Assembly: GCA_937907535.1 (NCBI GenBank)
Contig: CALCID010000067.1
Span: 1-43,120 of the forward strand
DNA length: 43,120 nt
Reading direction: 5' to 3'
Origin: an uncultured bacterium
GTDB lineage: Bacteria; Gemmatimonadota; Gemmatimonadetes; Longimicrobiales; RSA9
Position numbers and translations under genes: made by a program. Below the pieces are notes generated by a model. The model worked only from the letters and a program-made list of their open reading frames with translations, was not told where the DNA came from and did no database searches. Positions 9,806 to 33,720 of this stretch are shown here, one piece after another. Numbering within the stretch: the first letter of the stretch is position 1; each line of letters begins with the position of its first letter.

Positions 9806-11179
<1,374 letters not shown>

Positions 11180-11242
11180 GCGCCGGCCACGGGGGCAAGA
11201 TGCGTGCACGAGGCGGCCGGGCGCGGACCTGGCCCGGCCGGG

Positions 11243-11662
11243 TCAGCGGAGCGGGAGGCGCGAACGGGCGCGGAGCGCGAGCTCGACGCGGCGGGCGAGG
11301 AGGGAGAGGGGGAACGGTTTCTGGAGGCACGCCACGGCGCCGGTGCTCTCCGGGCCGATCCCCGGCGCGAGGGAGCCGGTGATGAGGATCACGGGGAGGC
11401 CGGGCCAGCGGCGTCGCACCGTGGAGAGGAGCGAGATCCCCGACTCGCCGGGGAGCGTGATGTCCGAGATCAGGACATCGAAGTCCCCGCCGGCGCCCTC
11501 CAGGAGCGCCATCGCCTCCCTGGCATCGGCCGCCGCCGTGACGGACGCGCCGAGCCGCTCCAGGTACAGGCTGAAGGACCGGCGGATGGCGGGCTCGTCA
11601 TCCACCAGCAGGATGCGGGCGCCGGCGAAGTCGAGCGGCGGCAGGGAGCCCGCCGGGTTCAT
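11243..11662 (-). CDS. Single-domain response regulator (CheY-like receiver only, no output domain)
   Basis: 139 aa with LLVDDEP, an LISDITLPG phospho-acceptor Asp, ILITG and a conserved QKPF Lys. Its ATG overlaps the upstream kinase stop as ATGA. Confidence 0.75.
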   Translation of the reverse strand: MNPAGSLPPLDFAGARILLVDDEPAIRRSFSLYLERLGASVTAAADAREAMALLEGAGGDFDVLISDITLPGESGISLLSTVRRRWPGLPVILITGSLAPGIGPESTGAVACLQKPFPLSLLARRVELALRARSRLPLR

Positions 11663-13293
11663 GCCTGCACCCCGTCCAGCCGGGCTGCATGGATCGCCGC
11701 CGGTTCCGGCTCCTCCGCCTGCGCGGCCGACTCGGGGCCGACGGGGAGGCGGATGCGGAAGCAGGCGCCGCCACCCGGCTCGTCCAGTACCTCCACGGTC
11801 CCTCCGTGACGCTCGATGATGTCCCTCGAAATCGGGAGCCCCAGCCCCGTGCCCTGGCCGTCGGCCTTCGTCGTGAAGAACGGGGTGAATATATGCGGCC
11901 GGACGTTCTCGGGAATACCGGGGCCGGTGTCCGCGACGTCGAGCTCGATCCAGCCGTCGTCCACCGACCGGCCGCGGATCGTGATGGTGCCCTGTCGGCC
12001 GATGGCGTGCTCCGCGTTGACCACGAGGTTCAGCAACACCTGCTGGAGCTGGTTCGGGTCCGCCCAGATCTCCGGGAGCTCGGGGTCCAGGGAGACGGCC
12101 ACGTCGATCTTGTTGCGCCGGTGGTCGTAGGCGCGGAGCGCCAGCGTGCGGCGGACGATCTCCTCGACCTGCACGAGCCGCCGGGCCCGGTCCGAGTTGC
12201 GGGAGAAGCTCAGCAGGTTGCGCACGATCTCCCCCGCGCGGCGGGACTCGCGGACGATCAGCTCGATCATCTCCCGCCGGGCGCCGTCGGACTCGTCGAG
12301 GAGCATGAGCTGGGCGAAGTTCGTGATGGCGGAGAGGGGGTTGTTCAGCTCGTGGGCCACGCCCGAGACCAGGCCGCCCACGGTGGCGAGCTTCTCCGAC
12401 TCCATGAGCTGCGCCTGGACCCGGCGGGCCTCGGTCCGGTCCCTCACGATGAGCACGAACGCCATGGGCTGGCCGTCCGACCGGCGGGTCACGACCTGGG
12501 TCACGTGCACGGGGACCGGCGAGCCGTCCGCGCGCTGGTGCACGGTCTCGCCGGCCCAGCCGTCGCCGTTGCCGTCGTAGCAGCGCGTGGAGGTGTGGGG
12601 TCCGGGGGGCACGCAGAGGGTGTCCAGCCCCCGGCCGTTGAGCTCGGATTCCGGGACGCCGTAGATGGAGGCGGCCGCGGCGTTCGCGTACCGGATCCGG
12701 CGGAAGCGGTCCGCCACCAGGACGCCGTCCCACAGGCGGTCCATGGCGTCCACGAACACCCGGGCGCGGCGGAGCCGGCGGCCCATCGCGTCCCGCTGGG
12801 CCGTCAGCTTCGCGATCTGGCGCTCGAGCTGGGCCCGCTTCGCCTCGAGCTCGGCGTGGCGCCGGGCGAGGCGCTCGTAGGAGCTCTCCAGGTAGCTGGT
12901 CGTGCGCCCGACGTTCTGCCGCCACGCGCCGACCGCCAGCGCCACGGCGGGCGCGCCCATGGCCAGCACGAGCACCTGGGACGCGCCGGCCCATACGAGC
13001 TCGGCCGACGCTCCGTGGTAGCCGTAGCACAGGACGGCGTACCCGATGACCATGGCGGCGCTGATCAGGCCGGACCGCCATCCGCCCATGAGGGAGGAGG
13101 CCACGGTGACGAGGAGTCCCACGGCGATGGGGCCGGGCAGCGCGAACGGGCCACTGGACAGGTACCAGAGCGCGATCAGCGTCGCGGCGGTGAGGATCGG
13201 GCCTCCGAGCTCCGCGCGCATTCTCGGCGACCCCAAGGGGGACCAACGGTGAACTACCAGATCTCCAGCCATGCCCACCTCGACTGCCATCAC
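11659..13293 (-). CDS. Sensor histidine kinase (N-terminal TM helices, PAS-like domain, HisKA H-box, HATPase_c)
   Basis: The H-box is VAHELNNPLSAI. N, G1 and G2 boxes are present (LVVNAEHA, DTGPGIP, GTGLGL). The N-terminus has about 4 hydrophobic helices. Confidence 0.8.
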   Translation of the reverse strand: MMAVEVGMAGDLVVHRWSPLGSPRMRAELGGPILTAATLIALWYLSSGPFALPGPIAVGLLVTVASSLMGGWRSGLISAAMVIGYAVLCYGYHGASAELVWAGASQVLVLAMGAPAVALAVGAWRQNVGRTTSYLESSYERLARRHAELEAKRAQLERQIAKLTAQRDAMGRRLRRARVFVDAMDRLWDGVLVADRFRRIRYANAAAASIYGVPESELNGRGLDTLCVPPGPHTSTRCYDGNGDGWAGETVHQRADGSPVPVHVTQVVTRRSDGQPMAFVLIVRDRTEARRVQAQLMESEKLATVGGLVSGVAHELNNPLSAITNFAQLMLLDESDGARREMIELIVRESRRAGEIVRNLLSFSRNSDRARRLVQVEEIVRRTLALRAYDHRRNKIDVAVSLDPELPEIWADPNQLQQVLLNLVVNAEHAIGRQGTITIRGRSVDDGWIELDVADTGPGIPENVRPHIFTPFFTTKADGQGTGLGLPISRDIIERHGGTVEVLDEPGGGACFRIRLPVGPESAAQAEEPEPAAIHAARLDGVQA

Positions 13294-13452
13294 GGGGGCA
13301 TCATCCCGCGCGCAAATCTATGCGTCGAAGCGACTTCGCTCCTTCACCCGGCGGGGGGTGAGGCGTTGATGCACAATAAAAGTCATAAAGTCTAACGGAA
13401 GGGGGAGGGGAGTACTAAACCGGTGTTCGGCGGCGGGGCATCATTATTCGTC

Positions 13453-13729
13453 AGGCTTCGCGGTAGGGCAACCCTGCCGGGTCGAGCACGGAGGGCAGCC
13501 TTCGCGGCGAGGCTGCGTCACCGGGTCGAGCACGAGCACGAGCACGTGCACGAGCACGAGGATGGGGTGACGTTCGCGGTGGCGCCGGATTCTTGGTCGG
13601 GCGGGGGTTCCTGGGCAGCCTTCGCGGTAGGGCTGCCACTCCGGGTCGAGCACGAGTACGAGGTCCACCTTCGCGGTGAGGCTTCGTCACCGGGTCGAGC
13701 ACGAGCACGAGCACGAGCACGTGCACGAG
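13453..13729 (+). repeat. Tandem array A: 4 degenerate copies of a ~50-67 bp repeat (CCTTCGCGG-N13-CCGGGTCGAGCACGAG(CACGAG)n), plus orientation
   Basis: Read directly from the sequence. The units start at 13453, 13491, 13613 and 13663. Each has a conserved CCTTCGCGG and CCGGGTCGAGCACGAG core. The 13-nt middle segment is variable and partly self-complementary. The CACGAG/CACGTG hexamer run varies in copy number between units. Confidence 0.85.
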
Positions 13730-14268
13730 GGGCGGGATGGCGTGTGGGCGGGTCGGGTGGGCGGGCGGGTTGGAGGAGGGTCGGGGTGTGTACGGTCCGG
13801 GAGGTGCACGGGAGGGATCCAGGCGGGTCGGTGACGCGGGCGCGAAGGTGTATGAGCACGCATCCGCCTACCGGTTACGACTACATGTATGGTGGGTGGG
13901 CCGAAGATTGGGCGGGGCCGAGCGGGTGCGTGGATTGAACGGGCAGGCTGGTCGTCGTGAGGGGGGTGCTCGAGCCGGAAGGCCGAGCAGACATGGTGGG
14001 AGAGGCCGCGTGGGAGACGCCGGCGTGCTCGTGGCGGTGTTCGCGTAGGACAGCGCGAGTGTGTGGCAGGATAGCGGCAGGCGGGTTTGGAGGGAGGCCG
14101 GGACCTACCGGGCGATGGGAGCGGCGAGAAGGATGGGGCGGGTTCGCGGTCCGTTCGGCGGGTTGTCCGCTGGCGAGAGGAAGCGGGCGCCCGGGCGCGA
14201 TCCGGCAGGTCGCTTCGCCCTGCGGCATGCACCCGGCGTCGTGGCTAGGGGGACGGACGCCGTGCCGG

Positions 14269-14964
14269 GAGGGCGCACCCTCGAGGGTGCCCGACCCGGA
14301 GGCTGTGTTCATGCGAAGGCGGCGGGCTACGGGTGCCTCGGCCGGCTGCTTGCCTTACGACGAGGGATCGAGCCGTGCCCGAGAACGTACTCGTATCTGC
14401 GGCCGCGCTCGACCCGGCAAGGTAGCACCTCCGCGAAGGTTACCCCGTGCACGTGCACGTGCACGTGCTCGTGCACGACCCGGAAAGGTTGTATTGCCGC
14501 GAGGGCGCACCCTCGAGGGTGCCCGACCCGGAGGCTGTGTTCATGCGAAGGCGGCGGGCTACGGGTGCCTCGGCCGGCTGCTTGCCTTACGACGAGGGAT
14601 CGAGCCGTGCCCGAGAACGTACTCGTATCTGCGGCCGCGCTCGACCCGGCAAGGTAGCACCTCCGCGAAGGTTACCCCGTGCACGTGCACGTGCACGTGC
14701 TCGTGCACGACCCGGAAAGGTTGTATTGCCGCGAGGGCGCACCCTCGAGGGTGCCCGACCCGGAGGCTGTGTTCATGCGAAGGCGGCGGGCTACGGGTGC
14801 CTCGGCCGGCTGCTTGCCTTACGACGAGGGATCGAGCCGTGCCCGAGAACGTACTCGTATCTGCGGCCGCGCTCGACCCGGCAAGGTAGCACCTCCGCGA
14901 AGGTTACCCCGTGCACGTGCACGTGCTCGTGCTCGTGCACGACCCGGAAAGGTTGTATTGCCGC
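14269..14964 (-). repeat. Tandem array B: three near-identical 232-bp units, each built from ~4 degenerate copies of the same repeat family in the opposite orientation and each carrying a 16-bp perfect palindrome GCACCCTCGAGGGTGC
   Basis: The sequence GAGGGCGCACCC recurs at 14269, 14501 and 14733, giving an exact 232-bp period. Units differ only by single substitutions in the (CGTGCA)n tract. The array ends 13 nt before the ATG at 14978. Confidence 0.9.
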
Positions 14965-14977
14965 GACGGTTGCCCCA

Positions 14978-15478
14978 ATGGAGGTCTCGTTGTTCGGATC
15001 CAGTCGTCTGTTGAGGTTGTTGTTCCTGGCGCTCGGGGTGGGCGGTTGCTCGGCGGGCGCGGGGGGTGGAGGGAGTGGGGATGTGCCCGAGCCCCGTGTA
15101 CGGGATGGGATCGCGTACCGGGCGGGGGTGGAGGTGCTGGAGCGCTACCCGGTGCAACTCCATGCGTGGGTCCGGGTGGAGAACCGGACGGACCGGGACG
15201 CGGACCTGACGTTCCCGGACGGGTGCGTGGTGCTGCTGGAGGCGCGGCGGGAGGGAGGGCGTGAGGAGTGGGTGCAGGCGCGGCAGGTGAGCTGCGTGGA
15301 GTCGGTGGTGCCGGTGCGGCTGGAGCCCGGGGAGGCGCGGGAGTACGGGGTGCAGGTCTCGGCCGCGGAGATCCTGGGGGACTCGCTCCCCGCGGGCCGG
15401 TACCGGCTGATGGCGGTGGTCCGTCCGCGCGGGGTGCGCGTGGAGGTACCCGCGGGGGTGGTGGAGCTGGCGAACTGA
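14978..15478 (+). CDS. Small lipoprotein of unknown function
   Basis: The ATG at 14978 is followed by a signal peptide with lipobox LGVGGC, then a beta-rich ~140-aa domain. It lies directly downstream of the 232-bp tandem array. Confidence 0.6.
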   Translation: MEVSLFGSSRLLRLLFLALGVGGCSAGAGGGGSGDVPEPRVRDGIAYRAGVEVLERYPVQLHAWVRVENRTDRDADLTFPDGCVVLLEARREGGREEWVQARQVSCVESVVPVRLEPGEAREYGVQVSAAEILGDSLPAGRYRLMAVVRPRGVRVEVPAGVVELAN

Positions 15479-16042: not shown

Positions 16043-18235
16043 ATGGAGCGCAGCGACGTCGGCTGCTGGAACCGTGGCGCGTCGGGGACGGCGCGCGGTG
16101 TGGGCCGGGCTCGCGCGGTGACGGGGGCGCGCGGGCCGGCGCGGGCGCGGTGGTGGGGAGGGGTGCTTCTCGTGGCGGCGGTGGCGGCGGCGGTGGTCGG
16201 GCTGCGGATGCCGGCGGCGGCCCAGCAGGCGCTGGTGCTGGGGGGCGGGGGTTCGCGGGGGCTGGCGCACGCGGGGGTGCTGGTCGGGCTCGACTCCCTG
16301 GGCTATTCGCCGGAGCTGGTGGTCGGCACGAGCATGGGCGCGATCATCGGCGCGCTGTACGCGGCGGGGCACGAGCCGGACGCGATCTGGCGGCTGGTGC
16401 TGGAGACGGACTGGCAGGAGCTGTTCACGCCGATGCCCGCGGCGTTCGGGCCGGACCGGCGACTGGTCTATCCGCTGTTCGGCTTTCCGCTGGACGATGG
16501 TCCGGGCGCCCGGCCCCGCGGGCTGGTTCCGGACTGGCGGGTGAACCGGCTGCTCGAGCGGACGCTGCTGGATGCGGGGGTGCGCAGCCGTGGGGATTTC
16601 GATCGGCTGCCGCGGCGGTACCGGGCGGTGACGGCGGACCTGGCGAACGGGAAGGCCGTGGTGCTGGGGCGGGGCGACCTGGCGCGGGCGGTGCGGGCGA
16701 GCATGGCGGTGCCGGGGGTGTTCGCGCCGGTCCTGTGGGACGGGCGGGTGCTGGTGGACGGCGGGATCGCGGACAACCTGCCGGTGGCGGAGGCGGCGGA
16801 GCTGGGCGGCCGGCCGATCGTGGCGGTGGACGTGGTCCGGCCGGACGCGGGGGTGCCGGAGATCGGGTCGCTGAGCTTGGCGATCCGTGCGTTCCGGCTG
16901 GTGCTGGAGAACGCGCGGCCGGACACGATCCAGCCGGACGTGCTGATCCTGCCGGATCTGGGGTCGGGGCTCTCGGAGGCGCTCTTCCCGCGGGATCCGG
17001 AGTGGCTGCTGGAGACGGGGCTCGCGGCGGTGGCCGGGGTCCCGCCGGCGGGGCCTGGCCAGACGCCGGCCCGCGCCCCGCTCCCCGCGCCGGCCCGGCT
17101 GGGCGCGCCGGTGGTGGATGCGGACGATCCGGGGCTGACCCCGCTGGTACGGGCGGCGTTCGGCCGGGAGCTTCCGGGGCCGTACGACCCGGAGGGGCTG
17201 CTGCGGGCGGCGGATCGGCTGTACGCCACGGGGCTGTTCGAAGGGATCTGGCTGCACGTGCCGCCGCGGGGCGGTGGGGCGGACGGGGGCGCGACGGGAG
17301 GCGACGCCGAGCCGGTGGTGGTGCGGGCGGAGGCCACGCCCCGGCTCTCGCTGACCGGCGCGCCGGGCTACGACACGGACCGGGGCGGCCGCGTCTGGGC
17401 GATGCTGGCGGGCCGGGCCGGGGCCGGAGCCACGCCCGTGGAGCTCTCGCTGGCCGGGCACATGGACGGGCTGGGCGGGGGCGGGACCGCGGCGGCGCGG
17501 GTCGTGCCCGCGGCGCTGCTCCCGTTCTCGGTGAGCGCGGGCGCGCATTTCGTGGAGACGGACCGGCGGATCTTCGACCGGGGCGGCGTGCGGGGGGAGG
17601 TCGAGGTCCGGCGGGCCGGCGGGTTCCTCGGGGTCGAGCGGCTGTGGATCGGGCCGGACCGGTGGCTCGTGGCGCAGATCCGGGCGGAGTCGGTGCGGCA
17701 GGAGGGGGGACTCTCGGGCGCTTCCGTCGGCCCGGCGCTGCGCTGGGAACGGGCGGACCGGCTGACGCGGATCGTGGGGGAATCGCCCCTGGTGGAGGCG
17801 GAGGCCCGGTTCGGCGAGGTGGATTACCGCCGGGCGCGGGTGCGGGGCGGCGCCGTCTGGCGGCCGGGGTGCTGGTACCTGGCGCTTGCCGGGGACCTGG
17901 CTGCGGTCTCGGACGGCGCGCCGGCGGACGCGGTGCCGGCCCTCGGGGATGAGCGCCTGGTGCCGGGAATGCGCTGGGGCGAGGAGCCGGGCCGGACCCG
18001 GATCGTTGCCGGAGGCGACGTCGCGTACCCCATCCCCCTGGACGGCGTGGTCCGCCTCCGGATCCGGTCCGGCGCCGCGGTGGGGGACGCGGACCGCCTG
18101 AGGGATGGCGGGGCGTGGGTCACCGGCGCGGAGCTCGGCCTCCTCTGGGCCACGCCCTTCGGCCGGATCGAGGCGGCATTCGGCGCGAACACGCGGGGGA
18201 GGAGGCGGGTGGAGGTGGTGGGGGGGAATCCGTGA
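16043..18235 (+). CDS. Patatin-like phospholipase fused to POTRA and an Omp85-like beta-barrel (PlpD-like, type Vd secretion architecture)
   Basis: A signal peptide is followed by the patatin oxyanion motif GGGSRG, the lipase serine motif GTSMG and the catalytic DGG. The Gly/Arg-rich C-terminal ~400 aa is consistent with POTRA plus a beta-barrel. The ATG at 16043 is the chosen start but is uncertain. Confidence 0.7.
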   Translation: MERSDVGCWNRGASGTARGVGRARAVTGARGPARARWWGGVLLVAAVAAAVVGLRMPAAAQQALVLGGGGSRGLAHAGVLVGLDSLGYSPELVVGTSMGAIIGALYAAGHEPDAIWRLVLETDWQELFTPMPAAFGPDRRLVYPLFGFPLDDGPGARPRGLVPDWRVNRLLERTLLDAGVRSRGDFDRLPRRYRAVTADLANGKAVVLGRGDLARAVRASMAVPGVFAPVLWDGRVLVDGGIADNLPVAEAAELGGRPIVAVDVVRPDAGVPEIGSLSLAIRAFRLVLENARPDTIQPDVLILPDLGSGLSEALFPRDPEWLLETGLAAVAGVPPAGPGQTPARAPLPAPARLGAPVVDADDPGLTPLVRAAFGRELPGPYDPEGLLRAADRLYATGLFEGIWLHVPPRGGGADGGATGGDAEPVVVRAEATPRLSLTGAPGYDTDRGGRVWAMLAGRAGAGATPVELSLAGHMDGLGGGGTAAARVVPAALLPFSVSAGAHFVETDRRIFDRGGVRGEVEVRRAGGFLGVERLWIGPDRWLVAQIRAESVRQEGGLSGASVGPALRWERADRLTRIVGESPLVEAEARFGEVDYRRARVRGGAVWRPGCWYLALAGDLAAVSDGAPADAVPALGDERLVPGMRWGEEPGRTRIVAGGDVAYPIPLDGVVRLRIRSGAAVGDADRLRDGGAWVTGAELGLLWATPFGRIEAAFGANTRGRRRVEVVGGNP

Positions 18236-18392
18236 GCCTTCGTCGTAATGCTACCTTGCCGGGTCGTGCACGAGCACGAGCACGGGGGCAGCCTTCGTCG
18301 TAAGGCCACCTTTCCGGGTCGAGCACGTGCACGAGCACGAGCACGAGCACGGGGCAGCCTTCGCGGCGGGGCTACCTAGCCGGGTCGAGCGC
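18234..18392 (+). repeat. Tandem array C: 3 copies of the same repeat family, plus orientation, starting at the stop codon of the patatin gene
   Basis: The units are GCCTTCGTCGTAATGCTACCTTGCCGGGTCGTGCACGAG..., GGGCAGCCTTCGTCGTAAGGCCACCTTTCCGGGTCGAGCACGTGCACGAG(CACGAG)n and GGCAGCCTTCGCGGCGGGGCTACCTAGCCGGGTCGAGCGCGG. Confidence 0.85.
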
Positions 18393-18460
18393 GGGTGTGA
18401 GGCTCGGCGAACGCGCTCCCCCACATATCCGAGCGCGGCACCTACTCCGCCATCCCCTCC

Positions 18461-18811
18461 TCAGCTCCCCAGCATCCTTATGAGCATCGACACGATGCGC
18501 ACAATGAGGGCTTTGCTGGTCCGGATGTCGGTTGCGTCTAGCAGCCCGATGTCGACCATGTGATCGAGGGCCGAGGCGGCGTTGGTGGCCGAAGCCCGGG
18601 CTACGCGAAGGAAGTACGCCCGGCGCCGGAAGGTCGGCTTGCCGCACGCTTCCGCGATGTTCAGCGCGACGGAGGACGTAGCCCGCTGGAGCTGGCCCGC
18701 CAGGTCCGGCCGCTTGCGCCTCACCTGCCTGGCGATCCGGGCAACCTCCCGGCTCAGCTCGCGGGACACCCGGTAGACATCCAGCCGTTCATGATCGAGC
18801 CCCGCAGGCAT
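18461..18811 (-). CDS. Four-helix-bundle protein (TIGR02436 family, the type typically encoded inside 23S rRNA intervening sequences)
   Basis: 116 aa from the ATG at 18811, which has GGAGAGGAG 6 nt upstream. The segments DVYRVSRELSREVARIARQV, ALNIAEACGK, RRAYFLRVARASATNAASALDHMVDIGLL and ALIVRIVSMLIRM match the four-helix-bundle family pattern. The longer track ORF reads into the repeat and is unlikely to be real. Confidence 0.7.
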   Translation of the reverse strand: MPAGLDHERLDVYRVSRELSREVARIARQVRRKRPDLAGQLQRATSSVALNIAEACGKPTFRRRAYFLRVARASATNAASALDHMVDIGLLDATDIRTSKALIVRIVSMLIRMLGS

Positions 18812-18948
18812 TGAGCGCTCCTCTCCCCCGGGCCACGTCGAGAAGACTACACTGCGAGGCTCAGGAATCCATGGCCGGGCTGGTCGTCTACATGCGTGGA
18901 ACGGCCGGGCAGACGCGCCAGCGCCGCCCGGCCTGCTCATGGAGGTTC

Positions 18949-19101
18949 CGTGCACGTGCTCGTGCTCGTGCACGACCCGGAAACGCAGCCCAACCGCGAA
19001 GGTTGCCCCGTGCACGTGCTCGACCCGGAAGCGCAGCCCTGCCGCGAAGGCTGTCCCCCGTTCACGACCCGGATAGGTAGCCCTACCGCGAAGGCTGCCC
19101 C
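18949..19101 (-). repeat. Tandem array D: 3 copies of the same repeat family in minus orientation; the last copy overlaps the 3' end and stop codon of the decarboxylase gene
   Basis: The reverse complement reads GGGGCAGCCTTCGCGGTAGGGCTACCTATCCGGGTCGTGAAC / GGGGACAGCCTTCGCGGCAGGGCTGCGCTTCCGGGTCGAGCACGTGCACGG / GGCAACCTTCGCGGTTGGGCTGCGTTTCCGGGTCGTGCACGAG(CACGAG)n. Confidence 0.85.
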
Positions 19102-28967: not shown

Positions 28968-31484
28968 ATGGGAGCCGGGAAGGGAACGGACGGTCGGCGG
29001 GCGGGCCGGGCGCTGGCCTGGGCGCTTCCACCGCTGGTGCTGGTGGTGATGGTGTCGTGGGTGCTGTGGCAGAACTGCGGCCTGGCGGGATGCCCGGACG
29101 TGGAGCTGCTGCGGGGGTACGTGCCGGAGGAGGCGTCGGTGGTGGTGGACCGGGAGGGGCGGGAGCTGGCGAAGCTGTACCGGGTGAGGCGTACGGTGGT
29201 GCCGCTGGACTCGCTGCCGCCGTACGTGCCGGCGGCGGTGGTGGCGGTGGAGGACCGGCGTTTCTGGGAGCACGGCGGCGTGGACTGGCAGCGGGTGGTT
29301 GGGGCGGCGCTGGTGAATCTGCGGGCGGGGCGTTTCCAGCAGGGGTTCAGCACGATCACGATGCAGCTGGCGCGGAACCTGTTCCCGGACCGGCTGCCGG
29401 CGCACGAGCGGACGATCTCGCGGAAGCTCGCGGAGATGCGGGTGGCGTTCGAGATCGAGGCGAAGTACGACAAGAAGGAGATCCTGGAGCTCTATCTGAA
29501 CCAGATCTATTTCGGGAACGGCGCCTGGGGGATCGACGCGGCGGCGGGCGAATATTTCGGGAAGCGGGCGTCGGAGCTGACGCTGGCGGAGGCGGCGCTG
29601 CTCGCGGGGATCGTGCGGGCGCCGTCGCGGCTGAATCCGCGGGTGAACCCGGATTACGCGGTGGGGATGCGGAACGTGGTGCTCCGGCGGATGGTGGAGC
29701 AGGGGCTGGTGTCGGTGGTGGAGGCGGAGGCGGCGTCGCGGGAGGAGTTGAAGCTGGCGCGGGACCGGGTGGACGTGGTGGAGCCGGCGGCGTACTTCGT
29801 GGAGCAGGTGCGGCGGCAGGTGGAGGCGCGGTTGGGGGAGGCGGTGTACACGGGCGGGCTGCGGATCCGGACGACGCTGGATCTGCGGGTGCAGGAGGTG
29901 GCGGAGGAGGAGCTGAGCCGTCAGCTCCGGGCGATCGAGTCGGGGGAGCTGGGCCGGTACACCCGGCCGGTGTACGCGGGGCCGCGGGAGGATGAGGAGC
30001 CGGGTCCGTACTCGCCGTATCTGCAGGGCGCGGTGGTGGTGCTGGACGCGCGGCGTGGGGACGTGCTGGCGTGGGTGGGGGGGCGGGACTTCCGGGACTC
30101 GAAGTTCGACCGGGTGGTGCAGGCGAAGCGTCAGACGGGGAGCGCGTTCAAGCCGTTCGTGTACGCGGCGGCGCTGGCGGCGGGCTATCCGCCGACGACG
30201 ATCCTGGATGACGTGCCGATGCGGATGGAGCTGGCGGGGGGTCAGGTGTGGGCGCCGCAGAACTTCGGGGGGAGCTACGCGGGTCGGATCACGATGCGGC
30301 AGGCGCTGGTGCAGTCGCGGAATGTGGCGACGGTGCGGCTGGCGCAGCGGGTGGGGCTGGAGGCGGTGCTGGATCTGGCGGGCCGACTGGGGCTGAACGG
30401 GTTGCCGGCGGTGCCGTCGGTGGTGATCGGTTCGGGTGCGGTGACGCTGCTGGATCTGACGGCGGCGTATGCGGCGTTCGGGCGTGGCGGGCGGCGGCCG
30501 GTGCCGCGGCTGATCCTTAGCGTGAAGGACCGGCGGGGCCGGGAGCTCTGGCCGCGGGCGCCGGAGCCGAAGCGGGTGCTGGATCCCGGGGTGGCGTTCG
30601 TGGTGACGGACCTGATGCGGGACGTGGTGGACCGGGGGACGGCCACGTCGATCCGGCGGGTGGGTTACTGGGGCCCGGCGGCGGGGAAGACGGGGACGAC
30701 GAACGATGCGACGGACGTGTGGTTCGTGGGGGTGACGCCGGAGCTGGCGGCGGGGGTGTGGGTGGGGTTCGACCGGCCGCGGACGGTGGTGCCGGGGGCG
30801 ACGGGCGGGGAGGTGGCGGCGCCGATCTGGGGCCGGATCATGCGGCGGATCGCGCCGGCGGATGCGCCGGGCTGGAGCCCGCCGCCGGGGGTGGAGGTGC
30901 GGGAGGTGGACGAGTGGGGGAACGTGGTGGCGCCGGGCTGTTACGTGGTCGGGCCGACGCGGCCGGAGTACTTCCTGGCGGGGACCGCGCCGCCGGCGCG
31001 GTGCGGTGGCGGGTATGCCCGGGGGTGGGGAGGCCGGTCGCCGGGGGACACGGTGGACCTGCCGGGCACGCCGCAGGAGGAGGCGTTCCATCGGCGGGTA
31101 TGGCGCCGGTTCTTCGGTGCCGAGCCGAACACGGGGGAGGCGGGCGCGGGGCGGGGGCGGGCACCGGCGGCCCCCACGGACAGCGGCGGGCTCCTGGGCC
31201 GGCCCGTGGACACGGTCCGGGCGCGCCCGTCGGAGCGCGAGCCGCGGGGGGAACGGCGCCGGGAGGAGGCGGAGGAGCGACCGCCGGACACGGTTCGCGA
31301 GCGGGGTGGCGGTGCGCGTCGTCCGGCGGAGCCGGCGCGGCCGGACACGGTGCGCCCTCCCGCCTCTCCGCCGGCGGGCGAGGGTGCGGAGCGCCCCGCG
31401 AGGCGGGACCGGCCGCGGCGGCTCCTAGGCCGTCCCGTCCCGGACCGGGCGCCGCCGGGCGCGCCGGTCGTGCCGCCGCCCTGA
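28968..31484 (+). CDS. Class A penicillin-binding protein (PBP1A-type: transglycosylase plus transpeptidase) with ~150-aa Pro/Arg-rich C-terminal tail
   Basis: TM anchor, GT51 motifs (EDRRFWEHGGVD, GFSTITMQLARN, RKLAEM), and transpeptidase SxxK (SAFK), SRN and KTGT motifs. The start is the ATG at 28968; the ATG at 28881, with GAGGA 7 nt upstream, is an alternative. Confidence 0.8.
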   Translation: MGAGKGTDGRRAGRALAWALPPLVLVVMVSWVLWQNCGLAGCPDVELLRGYVPEEASVVVDREGRELAKLYRVRRTVVPLDSLPPYVPAAVVAVEDRRFWEHGGVDWQRVVGAALVNLRAGRFQQGFSTITMQLARNLFPDRLPAHERTISRKLAEMRVAFEIEAKYDKKEILELYLNQIYFGNGAWGIDAAAGEYFGKRASELTLAEAALLAGIVRAPSRLNPRVNPDYAVGMRNVVLRRMVEQGLVSVVEAEAASREELKLARDRVDVVEPAAYFVEQVRRQVEARLGEAVYTGGLRIRTTLDLRVQEVAEEELSRQLRAIESGELGRYTRPVYAGPREDEEPGPYSPYLQGAVVVLDARRGDVLAWVGGRDFRDSKFDRVVQAKRQTGSAFKPFVYAAALAAGYPPTTILDDVPMRMELAGGQVWAPQNFGGSYAGRITMRQALVQSRNVATVRLAQRVGLEAVLDLAGRLGLNGLPAVPSVVIGSGAVTLLDLTAAYAAFGRGGRRPVPRLILSVKDRRGRELWPRAPEPKRVLDPGVAFVVTDLMRDVVDRGTATSIRRVGYWGPAAGKTGTTNDATDVWFVGVTPELAAGVWVGFDRPRTVVPGATGGEVAAPIWGRIMRRIAPADAPGWSPPPGVEVREVDEWGNVVAPGCYVVGPTRPEYFLAGTAPPARCGGGYARGWGGRSPGDTVDLPGTPQEEAFHRRVWRRFFGAEPNTGEAGAGRGRAPAAPTDSGGLLGRPVDTVRARPSEREPRGERRREEAEERPPDTVRERGGGARRPAEPARPDTVRPPASPPAGEGAERPARRDRPRRLLGRPVPDRAPPGAPVVPPP

Positions 31485-33009: not shown

Positions 33010-33117
33010 CGCCGCGCTCCGGAGCGTACCGGGAACACAACTTGCGATTTTACGTGCCCGGGCCGGGCCGCAGCGCTCCCGGCGGAATCGGAGCCGTGCG
33101 CAAGGAGGTACGCTCGG

Positions 33118-33720
33118 ATGGCGGACATCAACGTTGAGCGCAAGAGCCCGTCGATCTGGCCGTGGATCGTTGGCCTGCTGGTTCTCGCGCTGCTGATTTG
33201 GGCGATCGCGGAGATGGTCCGGACGGAGCCGGAGACCGCCCCGGTCGCGGAGACGGAGCCGATGACGCCGCCTGCGGCCGTGCCGTCGCCGGCGGAGAGC
33301 CAGCCGGTCCCGCTGCAGACGCTGGCGCCGCTGGGCTCGGAGGACTCGGGCCGCATGGTCCAGACCCGGGGCACGGTGGTGGGGAAGCCGACGGAGGAGG
33401 GGTACTGGCTGCTCACGGATCAGGACATGGTGATCTTCGTCCTGTCGGCGGACGATCCGGAGACGGGCCAGATGGTGGAGATCACGGGGCAACTGCGGCC
33501 GGCGCGGGGGGAGCAGGTCGATCGCTGGCTGGAGCTGGCGGAGCTCCGGCCGGCGGCGGGCTGGAACCTGCACCGGGAGCATTTCATCGCGGTGATGCCG
33601 GCGGCGGGCGCGCCGGTGCAGCCGAGCACGCAGCCGGGCGGGCAGCAGCCCGGTGCCCAGCAGCCGGGTGGGCAGCAACCCGGCGGGCAGCAGTCGGGCT
33701 CGTCGTCTTCGAGGCCGTAG
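33118..33720 (+). CDS. Single-pass membrane protein with Pro-rich linker and C-terminal (QQPGx)n repeat
   Basis: A strong RBS AAGGAGG lies 9 nt upstream of the ATG at 33118. The TM helix is IWPWIVGLLVLALLIWAIA. The C-terminus is QPGGQQPGAQQPGGQQPGGQQ. Confidence 0.6.
   Translation: MADINVERKSPSIWPWIVGLLVLALLIWAIAEMVRTEPETAPVAETEPMTPPAAVPSPAESQPVPLQTLAPLGSEDSGRMVQTRGTVVGKPTEEGYWLLTDQDMVIFVLSADDPETGQMVEITGQLRPARGEQVDRWLELAELRPAAGWNLHREHFIAVMPAAGAPVQPSTQPGGQQPGAQQPGGQQPGGQQSGSSSSRP
33634..33696 (+). repeat. In-frame 15-nt tandem repeat (CAGCAGCCSGGYGSS)x4 encoding QQPGx
   Basis: The nucleotide periodicity is visible directly at the 3' end of the CDS 33118-33720. Confidence 0.7.

Follow-up and report, generated by a model that had tools for sequence, protein, structure and literature searches.

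A tandem array of three near-identical 232-bp units stands directly ahead of a putative lipoprotein gene in a Longimicrobiales genome, which raises the question of what kind of object the array is, how it came about, and whether it acts on the gene behind it. We analyzed the whole 43,120-nt stretch of DNA that carries the array (referred to here as the window; GC content, 72.8%). It is a complete metagenomic contig of a soil bacterium of the Longimicrobiales (Gemmatimonadota). For comparison, contigs from other samples were found via the neighboring proteins, and their flanks are 98 to 99.9% identical to the window.

Anatomy of the tandem array

TRF reported a repeat with a period of 232 bp, 3.0 copies, 99% matches, and no indels (score, 1394; span, 14263 to 14966), and gap-free extension moved its end to 14969. 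Both approaches thus recovered the three near-identical tandem units that had been described in an earlier, sequence-only reading of this DNA. Two details of that reading had to be corrected. It placed the end of the array 13 nt before the gene start, but homology stops at 14969, 8 nt before the ATG at 14978. It also confined the differences between units to the (CGTGCA)n tract; comparison of the units revealed two differing sites only, one within the hexamer tract (14927, T versus A at 14463 and 14695) and one within the boundary repeat (14268, G versus C at 14500 and 14732).

With head-to-tail units of 232 bp that are 99% identical, the array has the makeup of a minisatellite or VNTR, for which units of at least 10 bp are expected. 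It is noncoding: its period of 232 nt is not divisible by three, and the ORFs that overlie it have no Pfam match. The units are nearly identical because they are young, have undergone gene conversion, or both. This agrees with the very recent duplication or homogenization suggested before, since the units are 99% identical and a related array (L003, see below) carries an 87%-identical unit in its middle. The array is bounded on both sides by an 11-nt repeat with the consensus TGCCGnGAnGG, which is the conserved core of a 45-nt element; the left copy corresponds to the conserved core in the loop of a degenerate element. The features of the locus are collected in Table 1.

Table 1. Features of the array, its surroundings, and the sister cassette (window coordinates; L004 and L013 are comparison contigs)
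Feature	Position	Strand	Basis or remark
Left array, four 45-nt elements	13447–13704	−	nhmmer; F orientation on − strand
G-rich (49% G) noncoding module core	13705–14262	+	Contiguous with the left part of the unit in window and L013
Tandem array, 3.05 × 232 bp	14263–14969	+	TRF, repeat finding, unit comparison
Array units 1/2/3	14263–14494/14495–14726/14727–14958		Followed by an 11-nt partial fourth copy
Left boundary repeat, 11 nt, TGCCGGGAGGG	14263–14273	+	Array bounded by imperfect direct repeat
Palindrome GCACCCTCGAGGGTGC, 16 nt, perfect	14275–14290, 14507–14522, 14739–14754		One per unit
Split, degenerate element remnant	14287–14322, again at +232 and +464	+	Relaxed nhmmer
Element A, clear copy, F orientation	14404–14446, 14636–14678, 14868–14910	+	nhmmer, E = 6.6e-12
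(CGTGCW)5 hexamer tract	14446–14477, 14678–14709, 14910–14941	+	TRF
Element B, inner copies, 3' arm replaced by GGGCGCACCC	14469–14506, 14701–14738	+	nhmmer
Element B, terminal copy, canonical end GGTTGCCCC retained	14933–14976	+	nhmmer; adjoins ATG
Right boundary repeat, TGCCGCGACGG	14959–14969	+	Unit comparison, L004 empty site
BsuPI-related putative lipoprotein gene	14978–15478	+	Pfam, NCBI name, gene-caller variants
Sister cassette, same architecture as module	18235–19101	−	nhmmer, Pfam
Cassette elements, three and three inverted	18235–18393; 18966–19101 (inverted)		
PF05635 four-helix-bundle gene	18461–18811	−	Pfam 23S_rRNA_IVP, 63.6 bits

Unit number differs among closely related strains

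We then compared the locus across near-identical strains. All unit counts come from metagenome assemblies, in which strain mixtures or loop resolution could distort them. In these assemblies, 0, 1, at least 2, or 3 units were present, so that copy number varies between close genomes in the manner of a VNTR, as the sequence-only reading had anticipated. That reading also considered changes in hexamer number; among the strains seen, the tract was of constant length and differed by A/T substitutions only.

Contig L004 (JGI 3300002523) has no unit and presents a clean empty site, in which window position 14273 is joined to 14959 (GGACGCCG-TGCCGCGACGG-TTGCCCCAATG). A single unit is found in L001 (NCBI GCA_035305025.1), where an IS5-family element is inserted just to its left; this unit is an A/B chimera, as expected from unequal exchange. 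Both L066 and L069 contain a unit-to-unit junction and hence at least two units. Three units are present in L003, in the order A-B-A: units 1 and 3 do not differ from those of the window (100% identity), while unit 2 is of a second type (B) that is 87% identical, with all 30 differences falling in unit columns 19 to 141. Barring a mixture of strains in the assembly, the A-B-A order requires three units. The A-A-A array of the window is k-mer-equivalent to two units, and its exact count of three therefore depends on the contig assembly. Short-read contigs mostly break in the last unit (L002 and L005 to L010), and the array explains such assembly breaks upstream of the lipoprotein gene in this lineage.

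L013, a JGI contig of 35 kb that belongs to a different species of the Longimicrobiales, also has the junction between the left part of the unit and the sequence preceding it, so that at least one unit must be ancestral and the empty site of L004 a deletion. A second, independent breakpoint, between L001 and the window, lies inside an element as well, at the same CCGCGA core.

The units are mosaics of a 45-nt element

TRF also placed (CGTGCA)n and (CGAGCA)n tracts elsewhere in the window, and reading those regions led to the recognition of a short dispersed element. It consists of CGACCCGG, an imperfect dyad, CCGCGAAGG, and a CCCC tail, with a (CGTGCW)n tract ahead. A profile built from the clear copies (nhmmer) identified 16 copies in the window, arranged in four intergenic clusters that all lie between 13452 and 19101, and further copies in contigs L073 (7 copies) and L074 (11 copies). 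The core pattern GACCCGG-N(8-30)-GCGAAGG occurs 13 times in the window, against 0.08 expected. An ungapped alignment of 19 distinct copies spans 45 nt, and CGACCCGG and most of CCGCGAAGG are invariant in it.

Each 232-bp unit contains two clear elements (A and B) with the hexamer tract between them and a split remnant, the rest being more diverged. The remnant matches positions 3 to 17 and 31 to 40 of the relaxed nhmmer model (E values of 0.02 and 0.6) and contains a core-pattern match at 14293 to 14319. Shorter tandem arrays of the element, with periods of 43 to 66 bp and 80 to 93% identity, occur elsewhere in the lineage.

Like REP and BIME sequences, the element is extragenic: the 16 copies of the window and the 18 copies of L073 and L074 are intergenic or overlap a gene end by 18 nt or less. 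Inside clusters, copies are in direct orientation, 44 to 66 bp apart, and neither the alternating orientation of BIMEs nor the inverted pairs of REPINs was found inside the clusters of the window. Inversion occurs only between whole arrays, about 570 bp apart.

The imperfect 7-bp dyad of the element pairs in 77% of the cells when in register, compared to 22 to 50% when slid. Neither this pairing nor its covariation exceeded that of column shuffles (one double change), and RNAalifold predicted no consensus hairpin, indicating that the primary sequence is conserved more than the structure. MFE structures also differed between copies, and the strand preference of the folds was contradictory. The invariant linear motifs hint at a sequence-specific recognition that pure slippage would not explain.

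The element family is absent from the GTDB species representatives. Scanning the genome collection with a two-element pattern returned 47 single matches in unrelated phyla, all consistent with chance; a match in Gemmatimonadales lies inside a coding region. A metagenome scan with a 21-mer of the unit gave four matches, three of which are chance matches in coding sequence. As a proxy for further copies of the surrounding module, we searched with the protein of a spurious ORF that reads the unit in three frames and recovered the window contig only; exact-protein look-ups of the kinase, the patatin protein, and the spurious ORF returned no record. Since the proxy search led back to its own contig and the GTDB representatives are devoid of the element, module and element are narrow and lineage specific. 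Searching the literature yielded no publication on repeat families of Longimicrobia or Gemmatimonadetes, and the 45-nt element represents an undescribed repeat family of the Gemmatimonadota/Longimicrobiales.

The array is one end of a larger noncoding module

The array is the gene-proximal end of a noncoding module of about 0.8 to 1.5 kb, in which inverted element arrays flank a G-rich core. The elements of the left array are inverted relative to those of the tandem array, and both the module of the window (13447 to 14977) and its counterpart in L013 (2576 to 3555) end in inverted element copies. Terminal inverted repeats around a short noncoding body are the layout of a MITE. No direct repeat that would represent a target-site duplication flanks the L013 module.

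L013 is approximately 75 to 86% identical to window positions 13669 to 14505 and to no other part of the window (tblastx, score filtered). The common region comprises an outward-facing element, a core of about 530 nt, the left 115 nt or so of the unit, and further elements; 30 nt of the unit are missing from L013. Over the core, identity is about 80 to 86%, with 1-nt indels and no codon periodicity, and the core has no Pfam match; a coding function was thus rejected. The core was likewise rejected as a structured RNA (fold z values of −1.56 and +0.92, both unremarkable) and as a decayed PF05635 gene, to which it has no similarity.

The core module was seen in two contexts only. In the window it lies between kinase and lipoprotein genes, and in L013 between S9 peptidase and DUF72 genes, adjoining the ATG of the latter. 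The DUF72 protein of L013 is 80 to 82% identical to those of NCBI Longimicrobiales MAGs. Syntenic relatives of L013 (DUF72 82 to 89% identical) have neither the elements nor the core. In L013, the module stands in place of about 290 bp of the native intergenic region, and the sequence specific to L013 starts exactly at an element. Folded end to end, the L013 module has a z value of −4.5. The presence of the module at different intergenic sites in two Longimicrobiales lineages points to MITE/REP-type selfish or recombinogenic behavior. Because it adjoins the start codons of two unrelated genes, the module must supply or transmit transcription if these genes are expressed, and a functional role is possible given this adjacency.

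Proposed misaligned recombination between element cores

Taken with its boundaries of TGCCGnGAnGG, the existence of strains with 0, 1, at least 2, and 3 units marks the array as a VNTR that probably arose by misaligned recombination. We consider it likely that the array is a young minisatellite/VNTR of a lineage-specific element mosaic, resized by misaligned recombination or slippage within a MITE/REP-like module. A 232-bp noncoding segment, itself a mosaic of the 45-nt element, would have been triplicated in tandem. The first duplication, the later gains and losses, and the full loss would all have resulted from misaligned recombination or replication slippage between the conserved element cores. 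The anatomy of the array, its polymorphism, boundaries, noncoding status, and restriction to the lineage are observations, from which the mechanism and near-neutrality differ in being inferred.

A sister cassette and its possible mobility

The window contains a second structure with the same architecture as the module. In this sister cassette, a PF05635 gene is enclosed by two inverted arrays of three elements each. This gene family has otherwise been encountered in intervening sequences of 23S rRNA, and it includes Avd, the accessory protein of DGRs. When the cassette is folded over its full length, its inverted arrays pair into a long stem (z = −7.9), so that the PF05635 ORF lies within complementary termini, as in an intervening sequence (IVS). 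The cassette is, however, not inserted in a 23S rRNA helix, the location from which RNase III excises an IVS.

An 864-bp block of the cassette is 94% identical in L074, where its neighbors are different. Patatin and PLP decarboxylase genes flank it in the window and in L002, patatin and glyoxalase genes in L001, and MarR-GNAT and glyoxalase genes in L074. A second copy from the same MAG as L001 (contig L073) lies beside an aquaporin gene, with the other side not assembled and the contig ending inside the gene. The PF05635 cassette is thus found in at least four gene contexts. The synteny between L001 and the window stops inside the last element of the cassette, and this is where the switch at the CCGCGA core takes place.

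These observations bear on an alternative origin of the array. The 45-nt elements could be sites for a dedicated recombinase or transposase (e.g., an HUH/RAYT-like enzyme that acts on single-stranded hairpins), which we hold to be unlikely. The core module and the PF05635 cassette would then be nonautonomous mobile cassettes, and the array would stem from repeated or aberrant cleavage and joining at CCGCGA rather than from passive slippage; this, too, we regard as improbable, although several findings are in its favor. Besides the changing neighbors of the cassette, similarity stops on several sides precisely where the terminal element has its outer end. No target-site duplication flanks the cassette in the window or in L074, as is the case for HUH-type elements. 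Both the unit boundary and the L001 breakpoint are located at the 5' edge of CCGCGA, and the invariant linear motifs of the element and the lack of the module in the syntenic relatives of L013 fit the same picture. On the other hand, the 43-kb window encodes no transposase, integrase, or HUH protein, its remainder being devoted to ordinary chromosomal functions. The flank patterns (A/c/X, A/c/Y, and B/c/Y) are equally well accounted for by homologous recombination between dispersed copies, and no empty site of the PF05635 cassette was found. Moreover, two junctions at one motif carry little statistical weight (chance would give this about 1 time in 10), and one module boundary lies at the end of an element and not at its core.

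In its fullest form, this proposal would describe a new Longimicrobiales mobile-cassette system, with cassettes of about 0.9 kb bounded by inverted element arrays, a PF05635 gene or the G-rich core as cargo, movement or exchange between intergenic sites by site-specific action at CCGCGA, and the array as a footprint; we regard it as unlikely. If true, it would tie the enigmatic rRNA-IVS proteins to a mobile element that is free-living and lies outside rRNA. The PF05635 gene, in an inverted-array cassette that has different neighbors in different genomes, is a more interesting lead than the array itself, and mobility of the cassettes, if real, would make the spread of IVS-type elements accessible to study.

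The lipoprotein gene and the palindrome

We also considered whether the array could be a regulatory device, in which the number of units sets promoter geometry or leader length and thereby switches lipoprotein expression, with the palindrome as an operator. The product of the downstream gene matches Pfam BsuPI with 26.8 bits (cutoff, 22.9), bears the NCBI name BsuPI-related putative proteinase inhibitor, and contains a lipobox, LGVGGC, that was recognized by visual inspection. The ORF from the ATG at 14978 encodes 166 amino acids, and gene callers returned 166, 162, and 131 amino acids. An alternative start, the TTG at 14990, is served by a GGAGG at 14980 to 14984 with a 5-nt spacer and may be the true start of the gene instead of the ATG.

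The location of the array lends this reading some appeal. The array (in L004, the module core) directly adjoins the upstream side of the gene, there is no other plus-strand gene within 1.7 kb upstream, and unit number is polymorphic among near-identical strains. In L013, the module displaced the native DUF72 upstream region and may therefore carry or transmit a promoter. Against it, we found no sigma-70-like promoter or intrinsic terminator in the array, the scan being one for sigma-70-like sites that does not extend to the promoter consensus of this phylum. The module also occurs independently of the lipoprotein gene, as it lies upstream of DUF72 in L013, and the same element arrays also sit 3' of genes and between convergent genes.

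Phase-variable promoter repeats of the Neisseria and Haemophilus type have units of 1 to 9 nt, placed between the −35 and −10 boxes or close to them. The array resembles them in having a repeat-number polymorphism directly 5' of a surface- or lipoprotein-type gene. It differs from them in its 232-bp unit, which is far above the size of the known phase-variable repeats, in the invariant length of its hexamer tract, and in that no promoter was detected inside it.

The palindrome was examined as a possible operator. As stated in the sequence-only reading, there is one perfect 16-bp palindrome per unit, and exactly three are present in the window. That reading took it for a plausible site of a dimeric regulator and proposed looking for the motif elsewhere; a search of the window revealed no copy beyond these three, even with 2 mismatches (0.06 expected). 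The palindrome is a 6-bp stem with a 4-nt loop, formed at the point where element B, with its altered 3' arm (GGGCGCACCC), joins the next remnant element. It reads GCACCC-CCGA-GGGTGC in the type-B unit and GCACCC-CTCC-GGGTGC in L013. The center thus varies (TCGA, CCGA, or CTCC), and the 6-bp arms alone are kept. Because the arms persist while the CTCGAG center is lost, the palindrome corresponds to a hairpin with a 4-nt loop and not to a dyad operator, which would be expected to show conserved half-sites and spacing and to recur at other genes. This indicates that the palindrome is probably a small hairpin, a structural by-product of the element junction, and the assignment to a dimeric regulator does not hold for the natural variants of type B and L013.

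Overall, a regulatory device appears quite improbable. Of the phase-variation-like scheme put forward earlier, the unit-number polymorphism stands, but the palindromic operator falls with its unconserved center. A regulatory effect of the array on the lipoprotein gene is possible; since the module adjoins the start codon, any such effect, for instance by a longer, hairpin-rich leader, would be incidental.

RNA and assembly readings

It is very unlikely that the units specify structured noncoding RNAs, as sRNA genes in tandem, or a leader RNA acting in cis. The region is GC rich and folds locally into several hairpins, the GTGCAC of the hexamer tract can pair with itself, and the palindrome keeps its hairpin arms, but whole-unit folds on both strands and of type B gave z values of only −1.4 to −1.9, and RNAalifold on 7 units found 1 compensatory pair and many broken ones between types A and B. 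No Rfam 15 match in the window reached the gathering score, and relaxing the threshold to an E value of ≤5 added one spurious IRES match of 16 bits; a tRNA/tmRNA scan found nothing. The 30 nt missing from L013 and the clean zero-unit allele further argue against an RNA.

That the array is an assembly artifact, generated by traversal of a de Bruijn graph loop at a locus with one real unit, would fit the k-mer equivalence of A-A-A to two units and the breaks of short-read contigs, but is hardly credible, as the junction TTGTATTGCCGCGAGGGCGCACCC requires at least two tandem units and is shared by the window, L003, L066, and L069, four contigs that were assembled independently and come from different samples, and the three units of L003 lie in three distinct sequence contexts.

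Relationship to known repeat systems

The array is a known kind of object and a lineage-specific new case of it. In behavior, it is closest to the MIRU-VNTR loci of mycobacteria, which are likewise intergenic, have strain-variable copy numbers and repeat ends at gene boundaries, and change by slippage or unequal recombination, as proposed here for the array. MIRU units are 40 to 100 bp long and are found within operons in fixed orientation. The array differs by its 232-bp composite unit and by its locus between divergent genes.

In concept, the closest system is BrickBuilt of Porphyromonas gingivalis, also a minisatellite nested in a MITE (PMC4596501). Both are intergenic, noncoding, species-restricted modules with inverted-repeat ends near genes, and both come in multiple forms and copy numbers among strains (PMC4596501). 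However, the BrickBuilt repeat measures 23 nt (PMC4596501), compared to a 232-bp unit that is itself a mosaic of 45-nt elements. In addition, BrickBuilt has 19 copies per genome and demonstrated promoter activity (PMC4596501), while the core module was seen in two contexts and no promoter was found.

The 45-nt element itself is similar to the REP/BIME/REPIN-RAYT sequences in being short, GC rich, extragenic, and endowed with dyad symmetry, as well as lineage specific, clustered, and adjoining stop or start codons (PMC2817692; PMC3116915). The rayt genes flanked by inverted REPs are reminiscent of the small gene flanked by inverted elements in the cassette, and target-site duplications are lacking in both cases (PMC2817692; PMC3116915). 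Unlike BIMEs, which alternate in orientation, the element clusters are direct tandem copies, and unlike that of REPs, the dyad of the element is weak and has no covariation support (PMC2817692; PMC3116915). Furthermore, REP systems flank a Y1/HUH transposase (PMC2817692; PMC3116915), whereas the gene found here encodes a PF05635 four-helix bundle, and no RAYT is present in the window. A REPIN-RAYT system would also be expected to have more than 100 copies per genome.

The sister cassette is best compared to rRNA intervening sequences such as the Coxiella IVS, an element regarded as selfish whose complementary termini pair into a stem with an S23p/PF05635 ORF in its loop (PMC4990558). In both, the PF05635 ORF is looped out by complementary termini. 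The Coxiella IVS resides in helix 45 of the 23S rRNA and has a 28-bp stem (PMC4990558), whereas the cassette lies between protein-coding genes, those for patatin and PLP decarboxylase in the window, and has arms of about 150 nt with three 45-nt elements each. The array, for its part, is a candidate strain-typing marker; the Gemmatimonadota have very few cultured members.

Sequence variation of the array in related strains

We compared the array of 232-bp units with its counterparts in near-identical strains. In contig L001 of MAG GCA_035305025.1, which carries a single unit, an IS5-family element (DUF4096 plus DDE_Tnp_1; 11147-12014) has integrated at a CTAG site lying ~17 nt to the left of this unit, equivalent to window position ~14246, and splits the unit from the G-rich core. 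In the contig L069 (JGI 3300025571; positions 1-370), from a strain 99.8% identical, the variable hexamer site of the penultimate unit is occupied by a T, whereas unit 2 of the window has an A. This difference suggests that the 232-bp units may exchange sequence or undergo conversion among themselves. A further JGI contig, of 43,320 bp and thus 200 bp longer than that of the window, contains the same YggX-like gene, and its lipoprotein and PF05635 genes are near-identical to those of the window (clustering at ≥90%). This contig probably spans the array.

Element arrays at other loci

The locus L074, which also harbors a PF05635 cassette, contains in a separate intergenic region (10136-10395) a tandem array of four copies with a 66-bp period and 85% identity. 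Its repeat unit consists of the 45-nt element together with its hexamer tract, and therefore tandem amplification of element-containing units is common in this lineage.

The PF05635 gene, encoding a four-helix-bundle protein (23S rRNA IVS protein/Avd family), lies within a cassette of ~865 bp and has a triple array of the 45-nt element on each side, the two arrays being in inverted orientation. Conservation of this cassette is 91 to 94%, yet its neighbor genes differ from genome to genome, and one MAG contains at least two occurrences of it. Element arrays adjoin or overlap gene ends: in the window, one begins at the final base of the patatin stop codon (18233-18236; TGA at 18233-18235), while a second overlaps the final ~6 codons of the PLP-decarboxylase gene (19083-19101).

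Sequences to the left of the array

The G-rich core (49% G versus 23% C, a strong G skew) is 80 to 86% conserved across two Longimicrobiales lineages despite unrelated flanking genes, and a block of ~50 nt (window ~13968-14018) is 100% identical to L013, a JGI contig of another species. The core has neither a coding signal nor a fold signal.

Further left, an AT-rich patch on the minus strand (13370-13471) is atypical for this 73% GC contig. The -35 box of its sigma-70-like match falls within the outermost 45-nt element, and this site probably serves as promoter for the gene encoding the PAS histidine kinase (11659-13293).

Positions of the core, cassette and promoter-like match
Feature	Window	Other loci	Strand	Description
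G-rich core	13705-14262	L013 2650-3250		non-coding, ~530 nt
PF05635 cassette	18235-19101	L074 7711-8558; L073 (same MAG as L001) 1-377; L001 6688-7562		
Sigma-70-like match	13471-13443		-	TTGCCC-17-AATAAT; only such match of the region

Two other sets of tandem or direct repeats in the window are unrelated to the 45-nt element family, namely a short repeat with a 15/30-nt period (33630-33699), overlapping the ORF at 33010-33720, and repeats spaced by 24 nt and ~105 nt (29098-29760).
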